Shown here: piece by piece, positions 15,673 to 55,990 of the stretch
Layout: every line of letters begins with the position of its first letter
Position numbering within the stretch: the stretch's first letter is position 1
NCBI GenBank assembly: GCA_002402995.1
Contig: DHGX01000001.1
Span: forward strand, 151,073 to 215,072
Length of the DNA stretch: 64,000 bases
DNA from: Patescibacteria group bacterium UBA4787
GTDB taxonomy: Bacteria; Patescibacteriota; Patescibacteriia; UBA2591; UBA4787
Reading direction: 5' to 3'
Notes under the pieces: model-generated
Database searches by the model: none
The model's input: only the letters and a program-made list of their open reading frames with translations
Told to the model about the DNA's origin: nothing
Program-made: the position numbers and the translations under genes

Positions 15673-17043
15673 ATGAAAAACCCAAAAATAATATTATTAA
15701 TTTTATTAATCGGCGCTTTATTGGTCAGTGGTTTTCAGTGCAAGCTTTTTCCCCAATCAAAGATTGTGGTTAATAAGGTTAAGCCTATTACTTTGAATTA
15801 TTGGCGCGTTAACGACGGGCCGGATAATTTTAGCGATATTATTTTAGCATTCCGTAAGGTTTATAGTCATATCAATATCAATTATCGGCAGTTTAGACTG
15901 GAAGAATACGAAATGGCCCTTTTGGAGGCTTGGGCTGAAGATCGGGGGCCGGATATTTTTTCTGTTCCGAACGCCTGGCTTGGGAAGTATGAAACAAAAA
16001 TTTTACCTATGCCTCAAGAAATTAATGTTGGTCGCCAAGTTTTGACAGGAACCATCAAAAAAGATTATAAAGTTATCTTAGAGACAAAAAAAATTCCTAC
16101 TACACGAGAATTTAAGGAGACTTATGTTGACACTGTTTTTCAGGATGTTTATCGGCAAAATAAATTATGGGGAGTACCTTTGACTCTTGATACTTTAGCT
16201 CTTTATTATAATCGCGATCTTTTAAATAGTGCGAAAATAGTTGACCCCCCGAAAACTTGGCAGGAATTCGTGGAAGACGTTAGATTAACCACAATAAAAG
16301 ATCGGACTGGAGACATAATTCAATCTGGTGTGGCAATGGGGACGGCTGATAATATACCGAACAGTATAGATGTTCTTTCTTTGTTAATGTTGCAGAACGA
16401 GACTCAAATGATCGCTCCTTCCGGAATTGGCACGGCCATGGAAAGTTCGTCATTGTCGGATAGTAATTATTATCCAGGAGAGGAAGCTTTGCGTTTTTAT
16501 ACGGACTTTGCTAACCCAACCAAAGAAACTTATTCTTGGAATAAAAAAATGCCAGACGCTTTAGAGATATTCGTTCAAGGGAAAAGCGCATTTTTTATCG
16601 GTGACTCGACTTATTTAGATATAATTAGAACAAGCGCGCCAAAATTAAACTTCGATATCGCTAAAATGCCGCAGATAGAGGGTTCAATTAGAGAGATAAA
16701 TTATGCTAATTATTGGGTTGAAGTCGCTGCTAAAAAAACAGTCTATCCGAATGAAGCATGGAATTTTCTTCTCTTTATGAGCGATCCGTTAAACGTTAAG
16801 TCTTATCTTAACCGCGCAAAACATCCTACAGCGCACAGAGCCTTGATCAAGGATCAGTTGGAAGACATAGACTTAGCGCCTTTTGTGAATGAAGTTTTAA
16901 CTGCTAGGTCGTGGTATTTAGGCAAAGATTATAGGGCCACAGGAGTATTCTTTAAACAAATGATAAACGATGTTTTAGACGGCAGAAAAAGTATTAAAGA
17001 GGCTATTAGTTTTTGCGCTCAACAAGTCAATCAAACTTATTAA
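15673..17043 (+). CDS. extracellular solute-binding protein, family-1-like (ABC-type), orphan
   Basis: A signal peptide is followed by an SBP_bac_1-like pattern (LNYWRVNDGPDNF...GPDIFSVPNAWLGKY). No permease or ATPase lies adjacent. Confidence 0.5.
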   Translation: MKNPKIILLILLIGALLVSGFQCKLFPQSKIVVNKVKPITLNYWRVNDGPDNFSDIILAFRKVYSHININYRQFRLEEYEMALLEAWAEDRGPDIFSVPNAWLGKYETKILPMPQEINVGRQVLTGTIKKDYKVILETKKIPTTREFKETYVDTVFQDVYRQNKLWGVPLTLDTLALYYNRDLLNSAKIVDPPKTWQEFVEDVRLTTIKDRTGDIIQSGVAMGTADNIPNSIDVLSLLMLQNETQMIAPSGIGTAMESSSLSDSNYYPGEEALRFYTDFANPTKETYSWNKKMPDALEIFVQGKSAFFIGDSTYLDIIRTSAPKLNFDIAKMPQIEGSIREINYANYWVEVAAKKTVYPNEAWNFLLFMSDPLNVKSYLNRAKHPTAHRALIKDQLEDIDLAPFVNEVLTARSWYLGKDYRATGVFFKQMINDVLDGRKSIKEAISFCAQQVNQTY

Positions 17044-17110: not shown

Positions 17111-17851
17111 ATGCATAACAAAAAAATAAAAATCATAATCGTCACTATTTTTTTGACTGGACTGGTCATTTCTCCTTTATTTGTTTTTGCTGAAACGGTT
17201 ATTTGTAACGGTGTTCCTGTTGAATGTGAAACAGGAGGATTGATTAGGAGTAAAGAGTGTGTTTGCTGCGGTGATTGTACTTTAACCGACGCTTTGGCGG
17301 TTTTTATCAATGTGGCAGATTTAATTTTAAAATATGTCGGCGTAGTTGCGCTTCTTATGTTGATCTTTGGCGGAGTTTTATGGATTTTGTCCGGCGGCAA
17401 CGAGAGCCAGATTAAAAAAGGCAAAGATGTTATAAAATATACTTTTTTGGGCATTATTATAATTTTTACCGCGTGGGTTATTGTCAATTTTGTGATTGAT
17501 AAGTTGGTGGTTGATAAATCAATTTTTCAAGGAACTTGGTGGGGCGGAAAAGAGAAAACCGATTGTTCTCAGACATGGAAAGACTGTATGGACTATGGCC
17601 ATATTGACGAAGGTGCGATTTGGGCACCCGGTTGTCAAAATGATAGCATTAGAGATGTACAAGAGAATTTAAATCGCCTTAATTGCGCGACTCCGAAATT
17701 AACAATTGACGGTTGTTTTGGTCCGCAAACCAGCTCCGCTTTATCCAAATTCCAGACAAATAAGGTCGTTGGTTCGGTTGGCGGCAGTTTGGATTGGCAA
17801 ACCTATGATGCTTTAATGGCCTCCGAGTCTAATAATTGTGAAGCGAAGTAA
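17111..17851 (+). CDS. pilin-fold (VirB2/TrbC-like) protein fused to a Cys-rich region and a C-terminal peptidoglycan-binding (PG_binding_1-like) domain
   Basis: A signal peptide is followed by the Cys-rich CNGVPVECETGG...CVCCGDC. The core FGGVLWILSGGNESQIKKGKD sits between two hydrophobic helices and is shared with the next three ORFs. The C-terminus CFGPQTSSALSKFQTNKVVGSVGGSLDWQTYDAL resembles PG_binding_1. Confidence 0.5.
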   Translation: MHNKKIKIIIVTIFLTGLVISPLFVFAETVICNGVPVECETGGLIRSKECVCCGDCTLTDALAVFINVADLILKYVGVVALLMLIFGGVLWILSGGNESQIKKGKDVIKYTFLGIIIIFTAWVIVNFVIDKLVVDKSIFQGTWWGGKEKTDCSQTWKDCMDYGHIDEGAIWAPGCQNDSIRDVQENLNRLNCATPKLTIDGCFGPQTSSALSKFQTNKVVGSVGGSLDWQTYDALMASESNNCEAK

Positions 17852-17875
17852 TTAAAATAATATATTAATAACCCA

Positions 17876-18247
17876 TTGTTTATTATGATGAAAAATAAGA
17901 ATAAACTTTTGCTGGCCCTCATCTTAATTTTAGTGGCTATTCCTGTTTTGGCTATCGCTGACAGCCAAGGCAGTGCTGAATTACCAAATCCTTTGGGCGA
18001 TACTAAAGATATACCGTCTTTAGTCGCCAACCTTATTAAAGTGGTTTTAGGCTTAGTCGGCGTTCTGGCTTTAGTGATGTTTATATACGGCGGTATTCTG
18101 TGGATGACTTCCGGTGGCAACGAACAAAAGATTAAGAAAGGAAAAGATACTCTGGTCTGGGCAACACTCGGTTTGGCGATTATTTTCTTTAGTTACGCGA
18201 TAGTTAATTTTGTTTTAGAAACCATTTTGACGAAAGTAAGACAATAA
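17876..18247 (+). CDS. VirB2/TrbC-like pilin-fold protein (paralog 2)
   Basis: A signal peptide is followed by a hydrophobic helix, then GGILWMTSGGNEQKIKKGKD, then a second hydrophobic helix. This is the VirB2/TrbC topology. Confidence 0.5.
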   Translation: MFIMMKNKNKLLLALILILVAIPVLAIADSQGSAELPNPLGDTKDIPSLVANLIKVVLGLVGVLALVMFIYGGILWMTSGGNEQKIKKGKDTLVWATLGLAIIFFSYAIVNFVLETILTKVRQ

Positions 18248-18248
18248 A

Positions 18249-18332
18249 GGGCATTAACCCAGAAGTAATGCCCTGTGTTATCCGCGCTCGCTCGGAAATG
18301 AAAATATATTTTCATTTCGCTCGCTTGATAAT
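18249..18332 (-). repeat. dispersed ~75-bp GC-box/palindrome repeat, copy A (inverted relative to copies B–D)
   Basis: The reverse complement contains TATCAAGCGAGCGAAATGAAAATATATTTTCATTTCCGAGCGAGCGCGGATAACACAGGG plus the gggcatta/taatgccc hairpin. Matches are at 36509..36583, 41728..41803 and 61497..61571. Confidence 0.7.
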
Positions 18333-18460
18333 AGACGGGAGTCAAATGGGTGTGGATAATTTTTATTGACGCTTTGCTCTTTTAACCCTACTATTAATAT
18401 ATAATTTATTTCTAATAAAAACGTCCCTTAATAAGGGCGGACTAAAAAGAGGCTTAAAAT

Positions 18461-18826
18461 ATGAAAAAGTATCTTCTCGCGACCCTTTTAACCATCTTTA
18501 TGGTGGTGCCTATCGCGGCTTTGTCGCAGACCAACAATTGGGAAATGGGTTTAACCCAGTTCCAAGGGCAGACCGGGTTGGGTAATCAGGATTTGCCTAC
18601 TACTATTGGCAAGATCGTGAATATCGTCCTAAGTTTCTTGGGTTTAATTGCCGTTGTAATCATCATCATCGGTGGCTTTATGTGGATGACTTCTGGTGGT
18701 AGTGAAGACAAAATTGGTGCCGCTAAGAAATTAATGATCAACGGTGTTATCGGCTTGCTCATTATTGTCGTTTCTTATGCCGCGGCGAACTTTATCGTTT
18801 CGAGATTAAAAACCGTTGCCGGCTAG
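18461..18826 (+). CDS. VirB2/TrbC-like pilin-fold protein (paralog 3)
   Basis: The core GGFMWMTSGGSEDKIGAAKK lies between two hydrophobic helices. A signal peptide is present. Confidence 0.5.
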   Translation: MKKYLLATLLTIFMVVPIAALSQTNNWEMGLTQFQGQTGLGNQDLPTTIGKIVNIVLSFLGLIAVVIIIIGGFMWMTSGGSEDKIGAAKKLMINGVIGLLIIVVSYAAANFIVSRLKTVAG

Positions 18827-18861
18827 TTATCTAATCGAAATTTAAACGCATTTTTGGTTTT

Positions 18862-19320
18862 ATGGTTTATTTAACTAATAAAATCAATTTTTATAACAAA
18901 ACAAGAGCGAATTATCATTTCGCTCTTGTTTTTATGGTTATTGTCTTGACCGGTTTATCTTTAATTATCGCGCCGTCTGTTTTAGCTCAAGAAAATCCAT
19001 TGGATGCTCTACAAAGCACCGCTCAAACCGCTGGTCTTGCTGGCGAAACAGATATAACCGTGATTATCGGTCGTATTATTAATGTTGTTCTAAGTCTATT
19101 GGGTTTAATTGCTGTTATAATCATCATCATCGGTGGCTTTATGTGGATGACTTCTGGTGGAGATGAAACTAAAATTAAAAAAGCCAAAGGCTTAATGCTC
19201 AATGGCATAATTGGCTTGTTGATTATAGTTATTTCTTATACTGCAGCCACGTTTATTATTGGAAGATTGCAAGAAGTCGGCCAAGGCAATGGCGCAGGAA
19301 GCGGTCCCATCACTCCTTAA
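18862..19320 (+). CDS. VirB2/TrbC-like pilin-fold protein (paralog 4); likely true start about 18934
   Basis: The core GGFMWMTSGGDETKIKKAKG is present. The internal Met MVIVLTGLSLIIAPSVLA gives a proper signal peptide. The C-terminal tail is Gly-rich (GQGNGAGSGPITP). Confidence 0.5.
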   Translation: MVYLTNKINFYNKTRANYHFALVFMVIVLTGLSLIIAPSVLAQENPLDALQSTAQTAGLAGETDITVIIGRIINVVLSLLGLIAVIIIIIGGFMWMTSGGDETKIKKAKGLMLNGIIGLLIIVISYTAATFIIGRLQEVGQGNGAGSGPITP

Positions 19321-19355: not shown

Positions 19356-19398
19356 AAAGAGAGGCATTTTTGCCTCTCTTTATATTTATTTTTTTATC
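19356..19398. terminator. bidirectional intrinsic terminator between the convergent pilin gene and the lipoprotein gene
   Basis: A perfect 10-bp stem aaagagaggc/gcctctcttt with loop attttt is flanked by A-run and T-run. Confidence 0.7.
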
Positions 19399-20029
19399 GA
19401 ACGTAGAAATCCCAATCATACCATTTATTGCCAAAAAACACTTCTCGTTTCTCGGCGTTGGCTTTCCACTTGACCGTTTCGGTTTTCATGATTTCCATGT
19501 GGTTGTTGAGATGGTCGATGACAAAGACGTTCTGGCCGACAGGAATAGATAGTTCTGCCATCTGTTTAGGGCAAAGCCTGAGCGGCTTTGCTGTTTTGCG
19601 GCTAAAGTCGGCACCGGTTCTGATCTCGACATAATGGCCGGAAGTGTTGATAATCACGCCTCGAACAAAAGATGTTTTACCAGAAAGCCCATTTTTGAAA
19701 GCTTCGGCTTCAGCTTTTATCATTTCGGCTTCAGCTTTTATCATTTCGGCTTCGGCAGAGGCGATTATTCTCTGATTCTCGAGTTCTGCGTCCAGTTTTT
19801 GTTTCTGCATTTCCCGCATGAGCCGTGTGTTTTCGGCTATCTGTGAAGAATCGAATGCGGTAAGGCCACCGTCACGTTCGTACGAAGACGAAATTGGGTC
19901 TAGGGTGGTTTTCTGGCTTACTTTGATACTGGCGCATCCGGGAACGATAGCGATGAGTACGCCGAGCACCAAGGTCACCAAAATAACCAGAGATGTTTTT
20001 TTGAACGAGAACATGGCTTTTTCCTCCAA
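19394..20029 (-). CDS. hypothetical lipoprotein with internal AEAEMIKAEAE tandem repeat
   Basis: A signal peptide with a lipobox-like VPGC is present. A 21-bp DNA tandem repeat at 19704..19756 encodes the repeated AEAEMIK motif. Confidence 0.4.
   Translation of the reverse strand: MEEKAMFSFKKTSLVILVTLVLGVLIAIVPGCASIKVSQKTTLDPISSSYERDGGLTAFDSSQIAENTRLMREMQKQKLDAELENQRIIASAEAEMIKAEAEMIKAEAEAFKNGLSGKTSFVRGVIINTSGHYVEIRTGADFSRKTAKPLRLCPKQMAELSIPVGQNVFVIDHLNNHMEIMKTETVKWKANAEKREVFFGNKWYDWDFYVR
19704..19756. repeat. 21-bp tandem repeat (about 2.5 copies) inside the lipoprotein gene
   Basis: The unit tcggcttcagcttttatcatt is repeated twice, followed by a partial copy. Confidence 0.6.
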
Positions 20030-20236: not shown

Positions 20237-21535
20237 TTATCGATAAAATAGAAAAATTAAAAGCAGATAAAAATTGAATAAAGCAGACAGGATAATAGCG
20301 ATTTTCATGCCTGTTTTTAGTTCTTGGTTTTTTTCAAAATAGTTTTTCATTAAAATCCAAAAAAGAAGAGGCAGAAAATCTAAAGCATAGCGATAACCCA
20401 TGGTTACATAACCAGCCCCGCCATAATAGAGGAAAAGGAGTGCGGCAATTATAGATATGTTAATAATTAATATTTTGGAGAGTCGATCTCTATATTTTAA
20501 AAAGAAAAAATATAAAAAATAAGGCGAAGTAACAAAAATACTCATACCATAAGGATTTGGTTTTATGAAAGGCAGTTGGAAGGTGGGCGAACTTCCTTGA
20601 TAGACTAACTGCGGTCCACTAAGAAAAAAATAATAGACATTGGTTGGCAAATGCTCGAGACTTAAAATTCCTTTATAGTCGCGAGCCTTCAGTAACAATG
20701 GACTTAAAACATATTGGTTTTTATAGCCGCCCTCTAGAATATTATCAAAACGCAGATAATTGTAGGTTATTAATAAAAAAGAGGCGATAATTAACGGCAT
20801 TAAAAGAGAAATTAAATTTTTTATTTTTTGTTTTTTTTCTTTTCGAGAAATGAAAATTATTTCCAAAATAAAAAAAATAATATTGAGGCCGGCGGTTAAA
20901 CGAGTGGCAAGCATTAAGGCCAAGAATATACCAATAAGCCAATAACGTTTTTTGCCCAAATATTCATAAACACTCAACAAGCCGAGAAGAACTGCAATAA
21001 CCTGTGCGAAATACCAGCTCCAAGGAATAAAAATTACTCCGATTAACATGGTGGCAAAACAAAATGCGAAAGCCCAATACCATGAATCGTTTTTTGTGTA
21101 ATTCAGGCGTTGAGCGATTTTAAAACAGATAAACGCAATAAATAAAACCAAGATAATCTGTAAAAATCCTTGATAAAAAAATAAATTAAAGATATTTGAC
21201 AAAAAAACAAAAGGCAAAAGAACAACGGCCGGAAAAGGACCGAGCGGCCAATAATAATGACCGTGATAGAGAGTAGTGTCATCGCTCCAGGAAAATCCCG
21301 GCATTTCCAAAAAATATAATCTACCGTGCAAAAATGATTTAGCCAAAAAAGAAAAATGCTGTTCGCCTTTAATGGTTATATTGGTGGCTATACTGATAGC
21401 CAAAAAGATTATAAACAAAATAATAATTAAATTGCGCGAAACAGAATATTTTGTCCAAAGATTTTTAATTTTTGAAGTTATCAAGGACATCGCGATGGAA
21501 CTTAAGGCGGAAAATAGTTTTAAAAAATTCAACAA
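20237..21535 (-). CDS. polytopic membrane protein, possible GT-C-like glycosyltransferase
   Basis: It has more than 10 predicted TM helices and lies in a cluster with a GT2 Ppm-like gene and a GT-C-like gene. It overlaps the upstream gene by 71 nt as annotated, so the true start is probably further downstream. Confidence 0.3.
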   Translation of the reverse strand: MLNFLKLFSALSSIAMSLITSKIKNLWTKYSVSRNLIIILFIIFLAISIATNITIKGEQHFSFLAKSFLHGRLYFLEMPGFSWSDDTTLYHGHYYWPLGPFPAVVLLPFVFLSNIFNLFFYQGFLQIILVLFIAFICFKIAQRLNYTKNDSWYWAFAFCFATMLIGVIFIPWSWYFAQVIAVLLGLLSVYEYLGKKRYWLIGIFLALMLATRLTAGLNIIFFILEIIFISRKEKKQKIKNLISLLMPLIIASFLLITYNYLRFDNILEGGYKNQYVLSPLLLKARDYKGILSLEHLPTNVYYFFLSGPQLVYQGSSPTFQLPFIKPNPYGMSIFVTSPYFLYFFFLKYRDRLSKILIINISIIAALLFLYYGGAGYVTMGYRYALDFLPLLFWILMKNYFEKNQELKTGMKIAIILSALFNFYLLLIFLFYR

Positions 21536-22190
21536 TTTCTTTTTTGCCGAGTTTTGATTGCCCGGCCCGCCGATCCGTAAAAACGACCGGCATCTCTTTA
21601 ATTTTAAGATTGTTTTTTTCCGCTAAATAAATTATTTCTTCAAGCCAAGCGTAGCCGTTGCTTTCAAGATTTTGAAAATTTATTTTTTGCAGGGCTTCTT
21701 TTCTAAAACAGCGGAAGCCGGCTGTTAGATCCTTGGTTTTTATATTAAGCGCTAAACGCGCGAAAGACATAGCTCCCCAAGAACAAAATTTACGCCACAA
21801 ATTCCAGTTGATAATTTGTCCGCCTTTGATTTTCCTTGAACCGATTACTATATCATACCCTTTTAGGCACGCGGTTATTAAGCGAGGTATATCTTTGGGA
21901 TTATGCGATAAATCAGCATCCATTTGAATAATCAGATCAGCGTTATTCTGGATTGCCAGGCTAAATCCTTGTTTATACGCGCTGCCAATGCCTTGTTTGG
22001 CGGACCGATGAATAACCGAAAGATTATAATTTTCAACTAATTTTTCGGCCAAATCGCCGGTTCCGTCAGGAGAATTATCATCAACTATAATGACCCGCGA
22101 ATTTTCAATTTTCAGCGCGAAAATTTCTTTGACCAAATTTTCCAAATTTTCTTTTTCGTTGTAAGTAGGAATAACTATGTATATTTTCAT
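21465..22190 (-). CDS. GT2 polyprenol-phosphate glycosyltransferase (Dpm1/Ppm1-like)
   Basis: MKIYIVIPTYNEKENL...VIIVDDNSPDGTGDLAEKL...QMDADLSHNP is the classic soluble Dpm1-type GT2 (DxD). Confidence 0.75.
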   Translation of the reverse strand: MKIYIVIPTYNEKENLENLVKEIFALKIENSRVIIVDDNSPDGTGDLAEKLVENYNLSVIHRSAKQGIGSAYKQGFSLAIQNNADLIIQMDADLSHNPKDIPRLITACLKGYDIVIGSRKIKGGQIINWNLWRKFCSWGAMSFARLALNIKTKDLTAGFRCFRKEALQKINFQNLESNGYAWLEEIIYLAEKNNLKIKEMPVVFTDRRAGQSKLGKKEIVEFFKTIFRLKFHRDVLDNFKN

Positions 22191-22213
22191 TTTTGCAAAT
22201 TGATTAATTTTTT

Positions 22214-23881
22214 CTACCTTAGATTATAAACAGCCGCTTCTTCGTCTTCGTATGTTTTAAAGAAAAAAGGAGAATGGTCAAGCTTCAATTTGAGTGGCTT
22301 ATAGGAAGAGCCAAACTCTCTTTTTTCCAGCAAAAACCAGAAAGAGCGGAAGTCGTTTTTTACAATTTGCGATATTTCTTGAGCACCGATTTTATTCTGG
22401 CTGATTTTTTGCCATTTCTCAAATAAATCTTTACTAAAGGCGTACATAAAAGTTTGGTCCAGGCCGTTAATATAATAATGTTCTGTGTCAAAATAAAATA
22501 AAAATGGAAAAGTATCCCAGCGTTGCTGGTAAATAATTTCTTTGGCCGGAATATTATTCTTTATCCACCAAGTTGTTTTTTGCAAATGTGTATAGGGGAT
22601 ACTTTCATTTAAACTTTTTTGGTATTCATTTTTTATTTGCAAGAAAGATTGGTCAAAAAAGCTTTTTATGCCAAAACCGATAATGCCGATTAAAATAAGA
22701 CTTGTGCCAAAAAGAGCCGCGGATGATTTGCCATGGAATAAGTTTTTAATTTTATTTTTAATCTCAGGCCAATTAGCTACTCGGAATAAATTATCTAAAA
22801 CCAAAGCCGAAAAAATAAGAGCCAGGGGCGCGAAGTATTCAATATTCCGCCGGGCTTTTAGGGTGTAAAGCAAGAAAAAGAAAGACAATAAAGCCAAAAA
22901 CCAAGTTTTTTTGCTTTGTTTTTTGGCATTGGACGCGAAATAGGCCACAGCCACCATCCACAATAAAATAATAGGGAAATTAGTAACAAGAAAAAATGTC
23001 GGATCAGAAGGATACCATTCCGCACCCACACCGATTTTGGCGTAATAATTGATAATGGCGATGTGGGTTAATTCAAACCAGTGGAAATAATAAGTTTTTG
23101 GGAAATAAGGATTTAAGGTGAGCCCCAAAATAATGCCCGAAAGAACAGATGCTAAAATAATTATATTAGGCCGCGAAAATATATTTTTTATCAAAAATCG
23201 TGCGTTGATTTTTTCTCGGTTTTGCAAGATTGAATAAAATAATTTTCCCAAGATATAAAAAATAACAGCTAATATTAGTAGAGGAAAGGCTCCGTATAGC
23301 CAAACATAAATAAAGCTGATGATTGCTAATGGCCGCCATTTTCCCCGGCTTATAAAATAAATAGCCAAAAATAAAACAATTATAGAAACAGCCGGCGCTC
23401 GCGTTAAGGAAATCCGCATTAAAAAACCATTGCTTAAAAAAAGGATTAAAATATATAAAAAGGGTTTCCGAACCTTCCATTTTTTAAGTAACCAATAAAC
23501 AGTTAAAAAAACCAAACTAGCCAAAAGGATCGCCGCCAATTTGGTTTTAATGAGCGGTTCAATTTCCAAACCAAAAGAATCCAAATTGGTGGGTGAAGGA
23601 ATTAACAAGAAGGGGATTAAAATAATATGATAACCAAAATGTTGATTGACAAAAAAATTATTATAAGTCGTATATTGCGTCCACGGGAAATTTTGAATAA
23701 TGCCCTGGTCTTTTATCATCATAGCCATTTTGGTGTGGAAAAAACCGTCCGGACACAACAAAGATGGCGTGTTCATAATCCACGTCAAAGCCAAAAAGAG
23801 AAATAAAAAAACCAGCCAATATTCTAAATGGTTGATTTCTACGATTTTTTTTATTTTTAATATTATGTTTTTAATAGACAT
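22214..23881 (-). CDS. GT-C-fold membrane glycosyltransferase (ArnT/PMT-like)
   Basis: It is a 555-aa polytopic protein. Its N-terminal loop DGFFHTKMAMMIKDQG resembles the DE/DD catalytic loop of GT39/GT83 enzymes. Confidence 0.45.
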   Translation of the reverse strand: MSIKNIILKIKKIVEINHLEYWLVFLFLFLALTWIMNTPSLLCPDGFFHTKMAMMIKDQGIIQNFPWTQYTTYNNFFVNQHFGYHIILIPFLLIPSPTNLDSFGLEIEPLIKTKLAAILLASLVFLTVYWLLKKWKVRKPFLYILILFLSNGFLMRISLTRAPAVSIIVLFLAIYFISRGKWRPLAIISFIYVWLYGAFPLLILAVIFYILGKLFYSILQNREKINARFLIKNIFSRPNIIILASVLSGIILGLTLNPYFPKTYYFHWFELTHIAIINYYAKIGVGAEWYPSDPTFFLVTNFPIILLWMVAVAYFASNAKKQSKKTWFLALLSFFFLLYTLKARRNIEYFAPLALIFSALVLDNLFRVANWPEIKNKIKNLFHGKSSAALFGTSLILIGIIGFGIKSFFDQSFLQIKNEYQKSLNESIPYTHLQKTTWWIKNNIPAKEIIYQQRWDTFPFLFYFDTEHYYINGLDQTFMYAFSKDLFEKWQKISQNKIGAQEISQIVKNDFRSFWFLLEKREFGSSYKPLKLKLDHSPFFFKTYEDEEAAVYNLR

Positions 23882-33534: not shown

Positions 33535-35733
33535 GTGTCTCATAGAAATAAAAATAATAAGCGCAAAGAAGTAAAATCGCCACCTCGCGCAATTGAAGTT
33601 ACGTCGCTAGATCAAAAGGTCTTTAAGTTAATTATCGTTACAATTCTAGTTGCTTTGGCTTTAATTTTATTTTTAGGTTTGATCGATAAGGCTGGTCCCG
33701 TTGGCCTGACGATCACCCATTTTTTGGGTAGAATTTTTGGTTGGGCGAATTGGTCTTTGCCGATTTTATTGTTAATCTCCAGCTATTTTTTATTAAAATT
33801 ACAACCAGCAGAGAATTTACCGAAGAAAAAATATTTTGGCTTTTTCTTTTTCGTTATATCTCTATCCGTCATTTTGCATTTGTTATTCTTAGCCAGTGAA
33901 GGAACTAACAGGGTTGGAGAAAGCGGCGGTTATGTCGGCTATTCGCTCGCGTATTTATTTCAACAATTTTTTGGTTATATCGGTAGCATGATTGTTTTTT
34001 CTACAATTTTTATTATCGGATTGATTTTATTATTTGTTTCTTTCGATAAGACCGAAGAAAAACAAAAATTGAAAGAAGAGAAAAAAGAAAATTTGGGCAT
34101 TAAAGAAGAAGAAAAGATTTCGAGGCGTTTTGGTCTGTTTTCTTGGTGGAAATCTTTTCAAAATGAATTAGAGAGAAAAGAAAAAGATTGTTCGGCTGAA
34201 GCAGAAGCTCGAAAAATATTAACACCTAAAACAGAAGAAATCATCTCACAAGACAAAAATGAAAAATCGCCGAAAGGAAAGAAAATTTCCGAAATATTTA
34301 AATCAGATAAAGGGGGTACTATTAGGAAAAAAATAACTGATCTGCCTTTCGATCTCTTAGATAGCGGCGCGGGCAAACCCGACGCCGGCGATGTTCAGGC
34401 TAAAAAATTTGTTATTCAAAAAACACTTAATAATTTTGGCATTGAAGTGGAAATGGGCGCTTGCCAGGTCGGTCCTACGGTTACGCAATATACTCTTAAG
34501 CCGGCGGATGGCGTTAAGCTTTCTCAGATTACAGGGCTTAACAATGACATCGCTCTGGCTTTAGCTGCCCATCCTATACGCATTGAAGCTCCGATTCCCG
34601 GTCAATCTTTGGTCGGCATTGAAGTTCCCAATCGAGCCATAGCTATTGTGCGTTTAAGAGAGCTCTTAGAAACCGAAGAATTTAAAAAAAGAAAAACCAA
34701 TCTTACTATTACTCTGGGTCGTGACGTGGCTGGCGCTGTTTGGTTGGCAGATTTGGGCCGTATGCCTCATTTATTAATCGCCGGATCAACTGGTTCCGGA
34801 AAAACCGTGATGCTTAATTCCATTATTATCAGTTTGCTTTACGAAAATACACCGGAAGATTTAAAATTTATTATGGTTGATCCAAAGCGCGTAGAATTGA
34901 CTTTTTATAATGATTTGCCTCATTTATTAGTGCCGGTCGTGACCGAGGTGCCAAAAACAATCAATGCTTTAAAATGGGCGATTCGCGAGATGGAAAATCG
35001 TTTTGATATTTTATCCAATGCCAAAAAACGCGATATCGAAACTTATAATCGTGAAATGCCGGAGAAAATGCCGTATGTCGTTATTGTGGTTGACGAATTG
35101 GCCGATCTAATGGTTGCTGCCTCTCAAGACGTGGAAGCCTGCATTATTCGATTGGCGCAAATGGCTCGTGCGGTGGGCATTCATTTGATTTTGGCCACTC
35201 AGCGACCATCTGTTGATATTATTACAGGTTTAATTAAGGCTAATATTACTTCGCGTATTGCTTTTTCAGTGGCTTCAATGGTAGATTCGCGCACTATACT
35301 GGACACATCAGGCGCAGAAAAATTATTAGGTCGCGGTGATATGCTTTTTACTAGTTCCGAACTTTCCAAGCCTAAACGCTTACAAGGCGCTTATGTTTCC
35401 GATAAAGAAATTAAACGAGTAGTTGAATATTTAAGAAACCAACGTGAGCCAGATTATAATTTGGAAATTACAGAAAAATCTAATAATGGGGCGCAGGAAG
35501 GAGGATTCTCTAATCTAGAAGAAGACGAACTTTTGCCTCAAGCCAGAGAAGTTGTTATCCAGGCGAAAAAGGCTTCGGCCTCATTACTCCAACGTAGATT
35601 AAGAGTCGGATATGCTCGAGCGGCTCGGCTTTTAGATTTATTAGAACAGGAAGAAACGATTGGCCCGGGCGATGGTGCTAAACCGCGAGAAGTTTTTATT
35701 ACTAGTATCGAAGATACAGATAACGAAAGTTAA
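33535..35733 (+). CDS. ftsK: DNA translocase FtsK/SpoIIIE
   Basis: An N-terminal TM region is followed by the Walker A AGSTGSGKTV, the Walker B VVVDELADLM and a C-terminal gamma-like domain (QRRLRVGYARAARLLDLLE). It starts with GTG. Confidence 0.85.
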   Translation: MSHRNKNNKRKEVKSPPRAIEVTSLDQKVFKLIIVTILVALALILFLGLIDKAGPVGLTITHFLGRIFGWANWSLPILLLISSYFLLKLQPAENLPKKKYFGFFFFVISLSVILHLLFLASEGTNRVGESGGYVGYSLAYLFQQFFGYIGSMIVFSTIFIIGLILLFVSFDKTEEKQKLKEEKKENLGIKEEEKISRRFGLFSWWKSFQNELERKEKDCSAEAEARKILTPKTEEIISQDKNEKSPKGKKISEIFKSDKGGTIRKKITDLPFDLLDSGAGKPDAGDVQAKKFVIQKTLNNFGIEVEMGACQVGPTVTQYTLKPADGVKLSQITGLNNDIALALAAHPIRIEAPIPGQSLVGIEVPNRAIAIVRLRELLETEEFKKRKTNLTITLGRDVAGAVWLADLGRMPHLLIAGSTGSGKTVMLNSIIISLLYENTPEDLKFIMVDPKRVELTFYNDLPHLLVPVVTEVPKTINALKWAIREMENRFDILSNAKKRDIETYNREMPEKMPYVVIVVDELADLMVAASQDVEACIIRLAQMARAVGIHLILATQRPSVDIITGLIKANITSRIAFSVASMVDSRTILDTSGAEKLLGRGDMLFTSSELSKPKRLQGAYVSDKEIKRVVEYLRNQREPDYNLEITEKSNNGAQEGGFSNLEEDELLPQAREVVIQAKKASASLLQRRLRVGYARAARLLDLLEQEETIGPGDGAKPREVFITSIEDTDNES

Positions 35734-55360: not shown

Positions 55361-55990
55361 ATGGATAAATTTAATCTAAAAAATTTAAATACCAATAGGC
55401 GCTGGGATTATCATACACAAGAATACCACAGTGGCAATCCAATAACCCAATTCCTTTTTAATTTTTTTTATAAAAAACTAGAAGAAGCCCTAATGGTGCT
55501 TAAGAGTGGCGACAAAATACTTGAAGTGGGTTGTGGAGCAGGAGAGTCTTCTTTGAGAATAAAGCGTATGCTTAAGGATCAATATTTTGAGGTATCAGAT
55601 ATAGACGAGTACTATATTAACAAATTAAAAGATAAAAATTTTTCTTTACCGGTATCTCAAGAGTCTGTTTATGATTTAAAAAGGGGCGATAACGAATTCG
55701 ACTGCATTTTATTTTTAGAAGTTTTGGAGCATCTCAAAAATCCAGAGTGCGCACTCCAAGAATTATTTAGAGTCTCCAGAAAATATGTTATTCTCTCTGT
55801 TCCCAACGAACCACTTTGGCGATTTTTAAATTTATTAAGAGGAAAATTTATCACTTCCCTGGGTAACACGCCCGCTCACGTTAATCACTGGTCGGTAAGC
55901 GAAATAAGCGATCTTGTTTCTCGGCACGGTAAGATTATTAAATTATATAAACCCATTCCGTGGATTATTATTATTGCAGAAAAGGAATAA
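55361..55990 (+). CDS. class I SAM-dependent methyltransferase
   Basis: Motif I ILEVGCGAGESS is present, and ILFLEVLEHL follows. Confidence 0.55.
   Translation: MDKFNLKNLNTNRRWDYHTQEYHSGNPITQFLFNFFYKKLEEALMVLKSGDKILEVGCGAGESSLRIKRMLKDQYFEVSDIDEYYINKLKDKNFSLPVSQESVYDLKRGDNEFDCILFLEVLEHLKNPECALQELFRVSRKYVILSVPNEPLWRFLNLLRGKFITSLGNTPAHVNHWSVSEISDLVSRHGKIIKLYKPIPWIIIIAEKE

Follow-up and report, generated by a model that had tools for sequence, protein, structure and literature searches.

The pilins of type IV secretion systems (T4SSs), as known from VirB2, TrbC and TraA, are made with a long leader that is cleaved off; two hydrophobic helices are linked by a short basic loop, and the mature length is about 70–100 amino acids (aa). 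Related genes also occur as tandem arrays in Patescibacteria, and one such array, made of four pilin-like open reading frames (ORF1 to ORF4, also designated P1 to P4 by position), is the subject of the present study. It lies in a stretch of 64,000 nucleotides from Patescibacteria group bacterium UBA4787 (contig DHGX01000001.1, positions 151,073 to 215,072), referred to below as the window.

The occurrence of these genes was documented by Quinonero-Coronel et al. (2025; PMC12102498), who searched 3,035 Patescibacteria genomes with the Pfam models PF04956 (TrbC/VirB2) and PF18895 (T4SS_pilin). VirB2-like pilins were found in 1,948 VirB4-containing assemblies, near virB4 in 1,135 of them and away from it in 813, and 441 tandem arrays of 2–11 pilin genes were counted, with a mean identity of 25% and a maximum of 54%. 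Microgenomatia and Saccharimonadia are reported to be richest in such arrays, and a versatile host range has been suggested as their benefit, on the model of Bartonella and Anaplasma (PMC12102498). VirB4 itself is reported to be widespread across Patescibacteria, and a 2025 review describes the systems of this group as unique among monoderms in their potential for conjugative pili. Both the family assignment and the existence of arrays without a nearby ATPase are already known in Patescibacteria, and the novelty implied by an earlier reading of the window from its letters (hereafter the sequence-only reading) has to be withdrawn, since such arrays, including those away from virB4, have been published.

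Genetic data come from Southlakia epibionticum ML1 (Saccharibacteria), the sole genetically tractable species, which cannot do without its T4SS and the associated PF18895 pilin array. According to Wang et al. (2023; PMC10633639), the predicted pilin series SEML1_0014–0019 (PF18895) is essential and is embedded in a T4SS cluster that also contains VirB4, PrgI and VirB6-like genes, and a separate solitary pilin is non-essential. The function of saccharibacterial T4SSs is described as completely unknown. The locus considered here is a conserved chromosomal operon that comprises a solute-binding lipoprotein gene and four non-redundant VirB2-type pilin paralogues. What is new is that the pilin array forms a conserved operon led by this lipoprotein gene wherever upstream DNA is available, together with the evidence for non-redundant subunits; neither is described in the literature searched.

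Four pilin-like proteins of the T4SS family

The array consists of four consecutive ORFs on the forward strand, taken from the ORF listing of the window (Table 1). For ORF2 the mechanical ORF opens at the TTG at 17876 (123 aa); the version that begins at the ATG at 17885 (120 aa) is identical to a public gene call (P0001), and this ATG is most likely the true start. All four proteins begin with a hydrophobic leader, and a further two hydrophobic segments bracket a GGxxWxxSGG motif. The motif GG(I/F/V)(L/M)W... noticed in the sequence-only reading is borne out by nine residues that are invariant in the alignment of the four ORFs (G87, G88, W91, S94, G95, G96, E98, I101 and K105 in ORF1 numbering). 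The same reading had described four small secreted proteins with one architecture; leader, helix, motif and second helix are indeed shared, but ORF1 is not small, since it has 246 aa and carries a PG_binding_1 domain. Local pairwise identity among the four ranges from 29 to 55%, the closest pair being ORF3 and ORF4.

All four ORFs exceed the gathering cut-off of PF18895 (26.6 bits). A match to PF04956 (cut-off 27.9 bits), which the sequence-only reading had looked to for confirmation, was obtained for ORF2 (35.5 bits); ORF3 (20.2 bits) and ORF4 (15.3 bits) remain below the cut-off and ORF1 gave no match. ORF2 is the member of the array nearest to canonical pilins. In NCBIfam, the best match of ORF2–ORF4 is NF045849 (Mbov_0395 pilin-like conjugal transfer protein), whose 40-bit cut-off is not reached by any of the four (19.1, 35.7, 36.3 and 32.8 bits for ORF1–ORF4). 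A profile built from homologues of ORF2 matches these four ORFs and no others in the window. Given this profile result and the four scores above the PF18895 cut-off, the array is not the product of chance. The names given by NCBI to homologues are ‘pilin’ or ‘TrbC/VirB2 family protein’.

A type IV pilin identity was rejected because the prepilin motif (G-F-T-L-x-E or G/FTLxE, class III) was not found by a regular-expression search of the four ORFs. The profile scores and sequence motifs support membership of ORF1–ORF4 in the VirB2/TrbC-type pilin family of T4SSs rather than in type IV pili, in agreement with the topology first proposed. Signal-peptide cleavage was assessed by eye with the −3/−1 rule, and sites are predicted between A27 and E28, A25 and D26, S22 and Q23, and A42 and Q43 in ORF1 to ORF4, respectively. 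They all fall well N-terminal to the conserved core, and a signal peptidase acting there would leave this core in place, contrary to the outcome that the sequence-only reading had named as refuting its proposal. An AF2 model of ORF2, calculated from an alignment of 49 sequences, comprises a leader helix and a hairpin formed by residues 43–74 and 80–119, with a mean predicted local distance difference test (pLDDT) score of 78 that rises to about 90–95 in the hairpin. The VirB2-type layout of leader, two hydrophobic helices and short positively charged loop is present in the sequence and in the model, with cleavage placed by eye.

The paralogues differ from one another in their additions to this plan. 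ORF1 contains 12 cysteines and ORF2–ORF4 none. Its layout is a leader, a cysteine-rich N-terminal ectodomain, the hairpin, whose core motif lies at residue 87, and a cysteine-rich C-terminal ectodomain with PG_binding_1 at the C-terminus (26.2 bits against a cut-off of 23). Most of the proteins in the first position of related arrays are cysteine-rich, and as a set they match PF18895 in 45 of 45 cases and PG_binding_1 in 8 of 45 (best E-value 3e-16); a word-indexed search returned 4 homologues of ORF1 itself. In ORF4 the leader is about 42 aa long, a length that the proteins of close relatives share, and the C-terminal tail is rich in Gly and Pro.

A solute-binding lipoprotein gene at the head of the array

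The gene upstream of the array ends 67 nt before ORF1 and encodes a solute-binding protein, for which NCBIfam gives only weak matches to MalE, GanS and UgpB, far under their cut-offs. A cysteine (Cys23) after the hydrophobic leader is near-invariant in 42 orthologues and gives the protein a lipoprotein-like character. No ABC permease or ATPase gene was found beside it in the window or in two fully annotated relatives.

The association of this gene with pilins was followed in two directions. A scan of species-representative genomes yielded 80 loci, about 50 of them with arrays of 3–9 pilins. In every related array for which upstream DNA is available, a homologue of the solute-binding protein is encoded directly ahead of the pilins in the same orientation, and this adjacency persists where other synteny is lost and the identity of the binding protein drops to 33–40%. 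The reverse test was a metagenome scan seeded on an alignment of the solute-binding proteins alone, restricted to loci with at least 600 nt downstream (n = 70). A pilin gene lies directly 3′ of the binding-protein gene in 67 of these 70 loci, with gaps of −40 to +211 nt, and the arrays found in this way contain 1–11 pilins.

Two homologous loci on long contigs illustrate the arrangement, with a penicillin-binding protein (PBP) gene on the minus strand, then the solute-binding protein on the plus strand, a long pilin with or without PG_binding_1 and a TrbC-like pilin, followed by a gap, two further pilins, a family-2 glycosyltransferase (GT2), membrane proteins and YebC. Among the loci recovered with the binding protein, those of a more distant group differ in their surroundings: in these (L132, L139, L143–L145, L151, L153–L157, L160–L166, L175 and L177), ComM, a Mg-chelatase-like competence protein, and SMC are encoded directly upstream of the binding-protein/pilin pair. 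A literature search found no paper that links a solute-binding protein with VirB2-like pilin arrays, and the main text of PMC12102498 does not make this link either.

Conservation of the array among relatives

The homologues and related loci come from metagenome-assembled genomes (MAGs) of Patescibacteria labelled Falkowbacteria, Uhrbacteria, Komeilibacteria and Parcubacteria, which we take to correspond to GTDB class ABY1. Many related MAG contigs (L015, L016, L019, L020 and others) are titled ‘uncultured Gammaproteobacteria bacterium’ despite Patescibacteria gene content and closest relatives, and the titles probably reflect bulk mislabelling in those submissions.

The order P1-P2-P3-P4 is matched in nearly all four-gene arrays, about 25 of them, and larger arrays gain copies after P3/P4. 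Relative to the closest relative (L013), identity is 86% for P2, 90% for P3 and 79% for P4. The corresponding ratios of nonsynonymous to synonymous substitution rates (dN/dS) are 0.21, 0.08 and 0.10, beside 0.09–0.15 for five flanking genes; the comparison covers P2–P4, as the sequence available for L013 starts only shortly before P2. P2–P4 are under purifying selection comparable to that on neighbouring housekeeping genes. The sequence-only reading had taken the array as a sign of antigenic or functional variation; the positional lines of orthologues and the purifying selection on ORF2–ORF4 speak against this claim.

The wider family is large. A profile search of 1.84 billion sequences returned 75,616 representatives at E ≤ 1e-3, of which 26,094 reach E ≤ 1e-10. 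The top matches are single polypeptides with 2–17 tandem hairpin units, among them P0126 (820 aa), P0127 (552 aa) and P0128 (1775 aa). Reading of the sequences gave 8 units in P0126 and 6 in P0127, and as the linkers are short and internal leaders are absent, these two are true fusions. Such multi-hairpin polypeptides are natural fusions of whole arrays into membrane proteins of 16–34 helices. At the other extreme, about 30 related loci (L031, L052, L058, L072, L089 and some 25 others) carry one P2-like gene in a different, recurring pattern of gene sizes. In L031, the one such locus annotated, this gene follows an SPFH/Band-7-like protein of 393 aa and a 248-aa protein without assigned function, and is followed on its 3′ side by Fpg, an AI-2E transporter and rubrerythrin; the L031 locus contains neither a binding-protein gene nor T4SS genes.

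Genomic setting and features of the array

The window is core chromosome. Its upstream part contains, in order, two tRNAs, TrkH/TrkA, RuvC, MgtC, QueA, a class A PBP, gyrA, the solute-binding protein and the pilins. Beyond the pilins, the opposite strand encodes a 211-aa lipoprotein-like ORF, a 432-aa polytopic membrane protein, a GT2 glycosyltransferase and an uncharacterised protein of 555 aa, and further on come YebC, a Mur ligase, rpoB, rpoC, FtsK, a helix-turn-helix protein, RecA and a polysaccharide biosynthesis region of about 25 kb. Mobile-element cargo was rejected as an explanation of the array on account of core-gene synteny with gyrA, PBP1, YebC, the Mur ligase and rpoBC.

Table 1. 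Pilin-like array of the window, with the gene that precedes it and its terminator-like hairpins
Feature	Position in window	Strand	Details
Divergent family-1 solute-binding protein gene	15673-17043	+	456 aa; lipoprotein-like N-terminus; SBP_bac_1 61 bits
ORF1 (P1), extended pilin-like protein	17111-17851	+	246 aa; PF18895 42.1 bits
ORF2 (P2), TrbC/VirB2-like pilin	17885-18247	+	120 aa; PF18895 45.6 bits, PF04956 35.5 bits
Terminator-like hairpin, spans ORF2 stop codon	18240-18282	+	inverted repeat I7 and sequence reading
ORF3 (P3), pilin-like hairpin protein	18461-18826	+	121 aa; PF18895 39.0 bits
ORF4 (P4), pilin-like hairpin protein	18862-19320	+	152 aa; PF18895 33.7 bits
Bidirectional terminator-like hairpin, 11-bp stem, closes the array after ORF4	19356-19381	both	terminator scan and inverted repeat I1

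Several DNA signals subdivide the array. A spacer of 213 nt parts ORF1-ORF2 from ORF3-ORF4 and holds promoter-like hexamers at 18332–18360 and 18366–18394, which are consensus matches only. A hairpin with a perfect 14-bp stem followed by TTTTATGG is found at 18898–18932 (+), in the 5′ coding region of ORF4 and 72 nt past the ORF3 stop codon; from its sequence, it may attenuate read-through from ORF3. ORF3 and ORF4 share an identical tract of 43 nt (18657–18699 and 19118–19160) within the repeat family D1 (86% over 96 nt), which may reflect gene conversion. All six short-read (Logan) contigs that contain ORF2 (L001–L006) stop in ORF3 at this tract, which therefore breaks assemblies.

On the far side of the array, the 211-aa lipoprotein-like ORF (19394–20029, −) has a VPGC lipobox and AEAEMIK repeats and separates the array from the membrane protein. 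In L013 no counterpart of this ORF is present, and the membrane protein comes 106 bp after the array. The convergent module at 20237–23881 (−), made up of the GT2 glycosyltransferase, the 432-aa polytopic protein and the 555-aa protein, is also found downstream of the array in L007, L010, L013 and many others. In L010 the 431-aa counterpart of the polytopic protein is annotated as MptA_B family and a neighbouring ORF matches PMT_2; the module might glycosylate envelope or pilin proteins.

Elsewhere in the window, Rfam detects two tRNAs only, and ARAGORN assigns a tRNA-Ile with anticodon TAT at 855–931 (−). Such a tRNA is uncommon in bacteria, where AUA is usually read by a lysidine-modified CAT tRNA. 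The polysaccharide biosynthesis region (about 37700–63000, +) has a lower GC content (about 0.32–0.35) and encodes an epimerase, a Wzz-like protein, a DegT aminotransferase, a UDP-GlcNAc 2-epimerase, a repeat-unit polymerase, an acyl-CoA ligase-like protein, a WbuX-like amidotransferase, a pyruvyl transferase, several GT2 and GT4 glycosyltransferases, methyltransferases and a 765-aa protein without family.

Assembly model and alternative explanations

The best explanation of the locus, to which about even confidence is given, is that P1–P4 assemble together as subunits of a polymer of the T4SS type, and that the genes for the machinery that builds it lie elsewhere. Each pilin would be inserted through Sec and then lose its leader, giving an N-out/C-out helical hairpin with its lysine-rich loop (SGGNExKIKKGK) towards the cytoplasm. 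The hairpins would pool in the membrane and co-assemble into one hetero-oligomeric polymer, which could be a conjugative-pilus-like filament or an envelope-spanning stalk. Assembly would depend on a monoderm-type T4SS (VirB4/VirB3/VirB6/TrsD), encoded elsewhere on the chromosome in most Patescibacteria. P2 would probably be the major subunit and P3 and P4 accessory ones, while P1, with its disulfide-rich ectodomains and peptidoglycan-binding domain, could tie the structure to a cell wall, either that of the bacterium or that of its host. The co-transcribed binding protein would be a partner of the polymer, as a sensor of a ligand or host glycan, as an adhesin or as a pilin chaperone. The role in host attachment or DNA uptake put forward by the sequence-only reading is a reasonable guess.

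Several observations weigh against this model. To our knowledge, filaments have not been observed with any PF18895 protein, pili are normally absent from monoderm T4SSs, and extraction of fusion proteins with 16–34 helices into a classical pilus would be difficult. Machinery is also missing nearby. Pfam and NCBIfam scans found no match to the VirB4, VirB6 and VirD4 families in the window, as the sequence-only reading had stated, nor to VirB3; among non-overlapping ORFs of 100 aa or more, nearly all were included, with precomputed Pfam results for most others, except the ORF at 55361–55990. Likewise, no T4SS ATPase, and no VirB4, type IV coupling protein (T4CP), VirB6 or VirB3, was found within 6–10 kb in about 155 related loci. 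For the ATPases, P-loop ORFs of at least 400 aa from both sets of loci were clustered and representatives of every cluster were compared with Pfam; the clusters correspond to gyrB, FtsK, ClpB, RecG, IF2, PPDK, ComM, SMC, UvrA and FtsH, and two have no Pfam family. A phmmer search of all locus ORFs with PrgJ and PcfC of pCF10 and TrbE, TrbL and TrbD of R751 gave no matches, and is insensitive, the control PrgJ and TrbE missing each other. Links to solved or plasmid-borne pilins are equally scarce. The structural comparison proposed in the sequence-only reading gave no Foldseek match with an E-value below 0.6 for the ORF2 model, a profile search of PDB sequences came back empty, alignment with R751 TrbC by hhalign was insignificant (only helix 1 and the GG aligned) and nothing was retrieved by tblastn from the 72,556 plasmids of PLSDB. 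The helical hairpin is a generic shape that matches thousands of folds, and for this reason comparison with solved structures cannot discriminate; a link to canonical conjugative pilins is suggested by the Pfam TrbC model and by the shared architecture.

Two ATPases in or near the window deserve mention in their own right. The sole P-loop ORF of at least 400 aa in the window is FtsK (33535–35733); at 33.5 kb, it was considered as a coupling protein and rejected, since its 4TM, alpha and gamma domains are those of the chromosomal translocase. The flanking sequence covered reaches about 6 kb to the left of the window and less than 2 kb to the right. On the left side, at a distance of about 5.5 kb, a T2SSE/PilB-type ATPase (560 aa; L096 1-395) is encoded beside ClpP, LeuRS, a CtpA-like protease and RuvB; it is machinery of a type IV pilus or a type II secretion system, not a VirB4 or T4SS component.

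The absence of an ATPase near any of the 155 or so loci would be explained directly by a module independent of T4SSs, in which the hairpins stay in the membrane and associate laterally, as in the fused multi-hairpin proteins, to give a ring or pore, or an anchor that cooperates with the solute-binding lipoprotein on its tether. Such a module would serve for uptake or sensing in an unconventional way, or would tether wall and membrane, and its VirB2 likeness would be due to shared ancestry only. The near-universal adjacency of binding protein and pilins (67 of 70 seeded loci and every array with upstream DNA), the lack of an ABC permease or ATPase alongside the binding protein, the single-chain fusions of up to 17 hairpins and the P2-like singleton of L031, which adjoins an SPFH/Band-7-like membrane protein and not T4SS genes, all fit such a module. 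It is nevertheless judged unlikely. We know of no precedent for a binding protein that partners two-helix hairpins, pilins lie near virB4 in 1,135 assemblies (PMC12102498), and in the sole experimentally studied species the PF18895 array is essential together with the VirB4/VirB6/PrgI cluster that encloses it (PMC10633639). Quite unlikely is a more specific proposal, a self-contained T4SS-free envelope device conserved across a large Patescibacteria lineage, in which the tethered binding protein passes a host-derived ligand to a hetero-oligomeric VirB2-like ring or tube, or is displayed on it. If true, this device would be a previously undescribed machine for uptake, sensing or attachment, descended from conjugative pilins and with its subunits fused in some lineages into single proteins of 16–34 helices.

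A different use of the paralogues, as alternative or fast-diversifying versions of a surface filament subunit, has been proposed for the VirB2 paralogues of Bartonella and Anaplasma, in terms of antigenic or host-range variation, and suggested for Patescibacteria, according to the summary given in PMC12102498. Array size does differ by lineage (3–9 pilins in one scan and 1–11 in the other) with additions after P3/P4, the 43-nt tract shared by ORF3 and ORF4 is suggestive of gene conversion, and the idea has been voiced in the literature (PMC12102498). It is considered very unlikely here, as the order and identity of P1–P4 are kept across relatives, P2–P4 are 79–90% identical to their counterparts in L013 with dN/dS of 0.08–0.21, evolving no faster than YebC, the GT2 or the Mur ligase, and the fusion of arrays implies that all units are used at once and in equal amounts. 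Co-assembly, as opposed to alternative use, is supported by the positional orthology, the purifying selection and the natural fusions. Lastly, the generic helical hairpin fold and the weak spurious Pfam matches to other membrane families could be those of unrelated small membrane proteins, such as holins or bacteriocin-immunity proteins, that match pilin models by hydrophobic composition. This explanation is hardly credible in view of scores above curated cut-offs, specific conserved motifs, 26,094 representative relatives at E ≤ 1e-10 and a core-chromosome synteny without phage or bacteriocin genes.

The locus bears on how ultra-small episymbiotic bacteria contact and exploit their hosts. The array is no new kind of element; in another large lineage, it is a stable, multi-subunit operon under purifying selection, set apart from any T4SS ATPase and coupled to an orphan solute-binding lipoprotein. 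The result singles out a specific partner protein and speaks for paralogues that belong to a single assembly and are not interchangeable variants.

Comparison with known systems

The array of the window agrees with the published description of Patescibacteria ‘VirB2 arrays’ (PMC12102498), with two or more tandem, divergent PF18895/PF04956 genes in a Patescibacteria chromosome. Those arrays are likewise often away from virB4, and the identity among members is 29–55% in the present case. The main text of PMC12102498 makes no mention of a solute-binding protein, positional orthology, a peptidoglycan-binding first member or selection, and its proposal of host-range versatility is not favoured by the present data. 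The array of S. epibionticum ML1 resembles the present one in being a tandem series of small PF18895 paralogues with divergent sequences and the same architecture in a Patescibacterium; it differs in having six genes inside a T4SS cluster, whereas here there are four genes and no T4SS gene in 64 kb. No solute-binding protein is listed for the S. epibionticum locus in the passages of PMC10633639 on that cluster, whereas here a binding-protein gene leads the array.

More distant systems resemble the array in part and differ from it in setting. VirB2 of the Ti plasmid, TrbC of IncP plasmids and TraA of the F plasmid have in common with the present proteins a leader, two helices and a basic loop, and ORF2 passes the TrbC model; they are encoded in operons with VirB4, VirB6 and further T4SS genes on mobile elements of diderms, whereas the genes described here are chromosomal, in a monoderm, without machinery nearby and without a direct match to R751 TrbC, plasmids or solved pilins. 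The Mbov_0395 family of mycoplasma integrative and conjugative elements (ICEs) offers a VirB2-like hairpin in a wall-less or monoderm lineage, but the ORFs score below its cut-off and stand in no ICE context. In Bartonella and Anaplasma, as these are cited in PMC12102498, tandem amplification of virB2-like genes is a further point of likeness; there, the paralogues belong to complete diderm T4SSs and are linked to immune evasion in animal hosts, whereas here they are under purifying selection and in conserved order.

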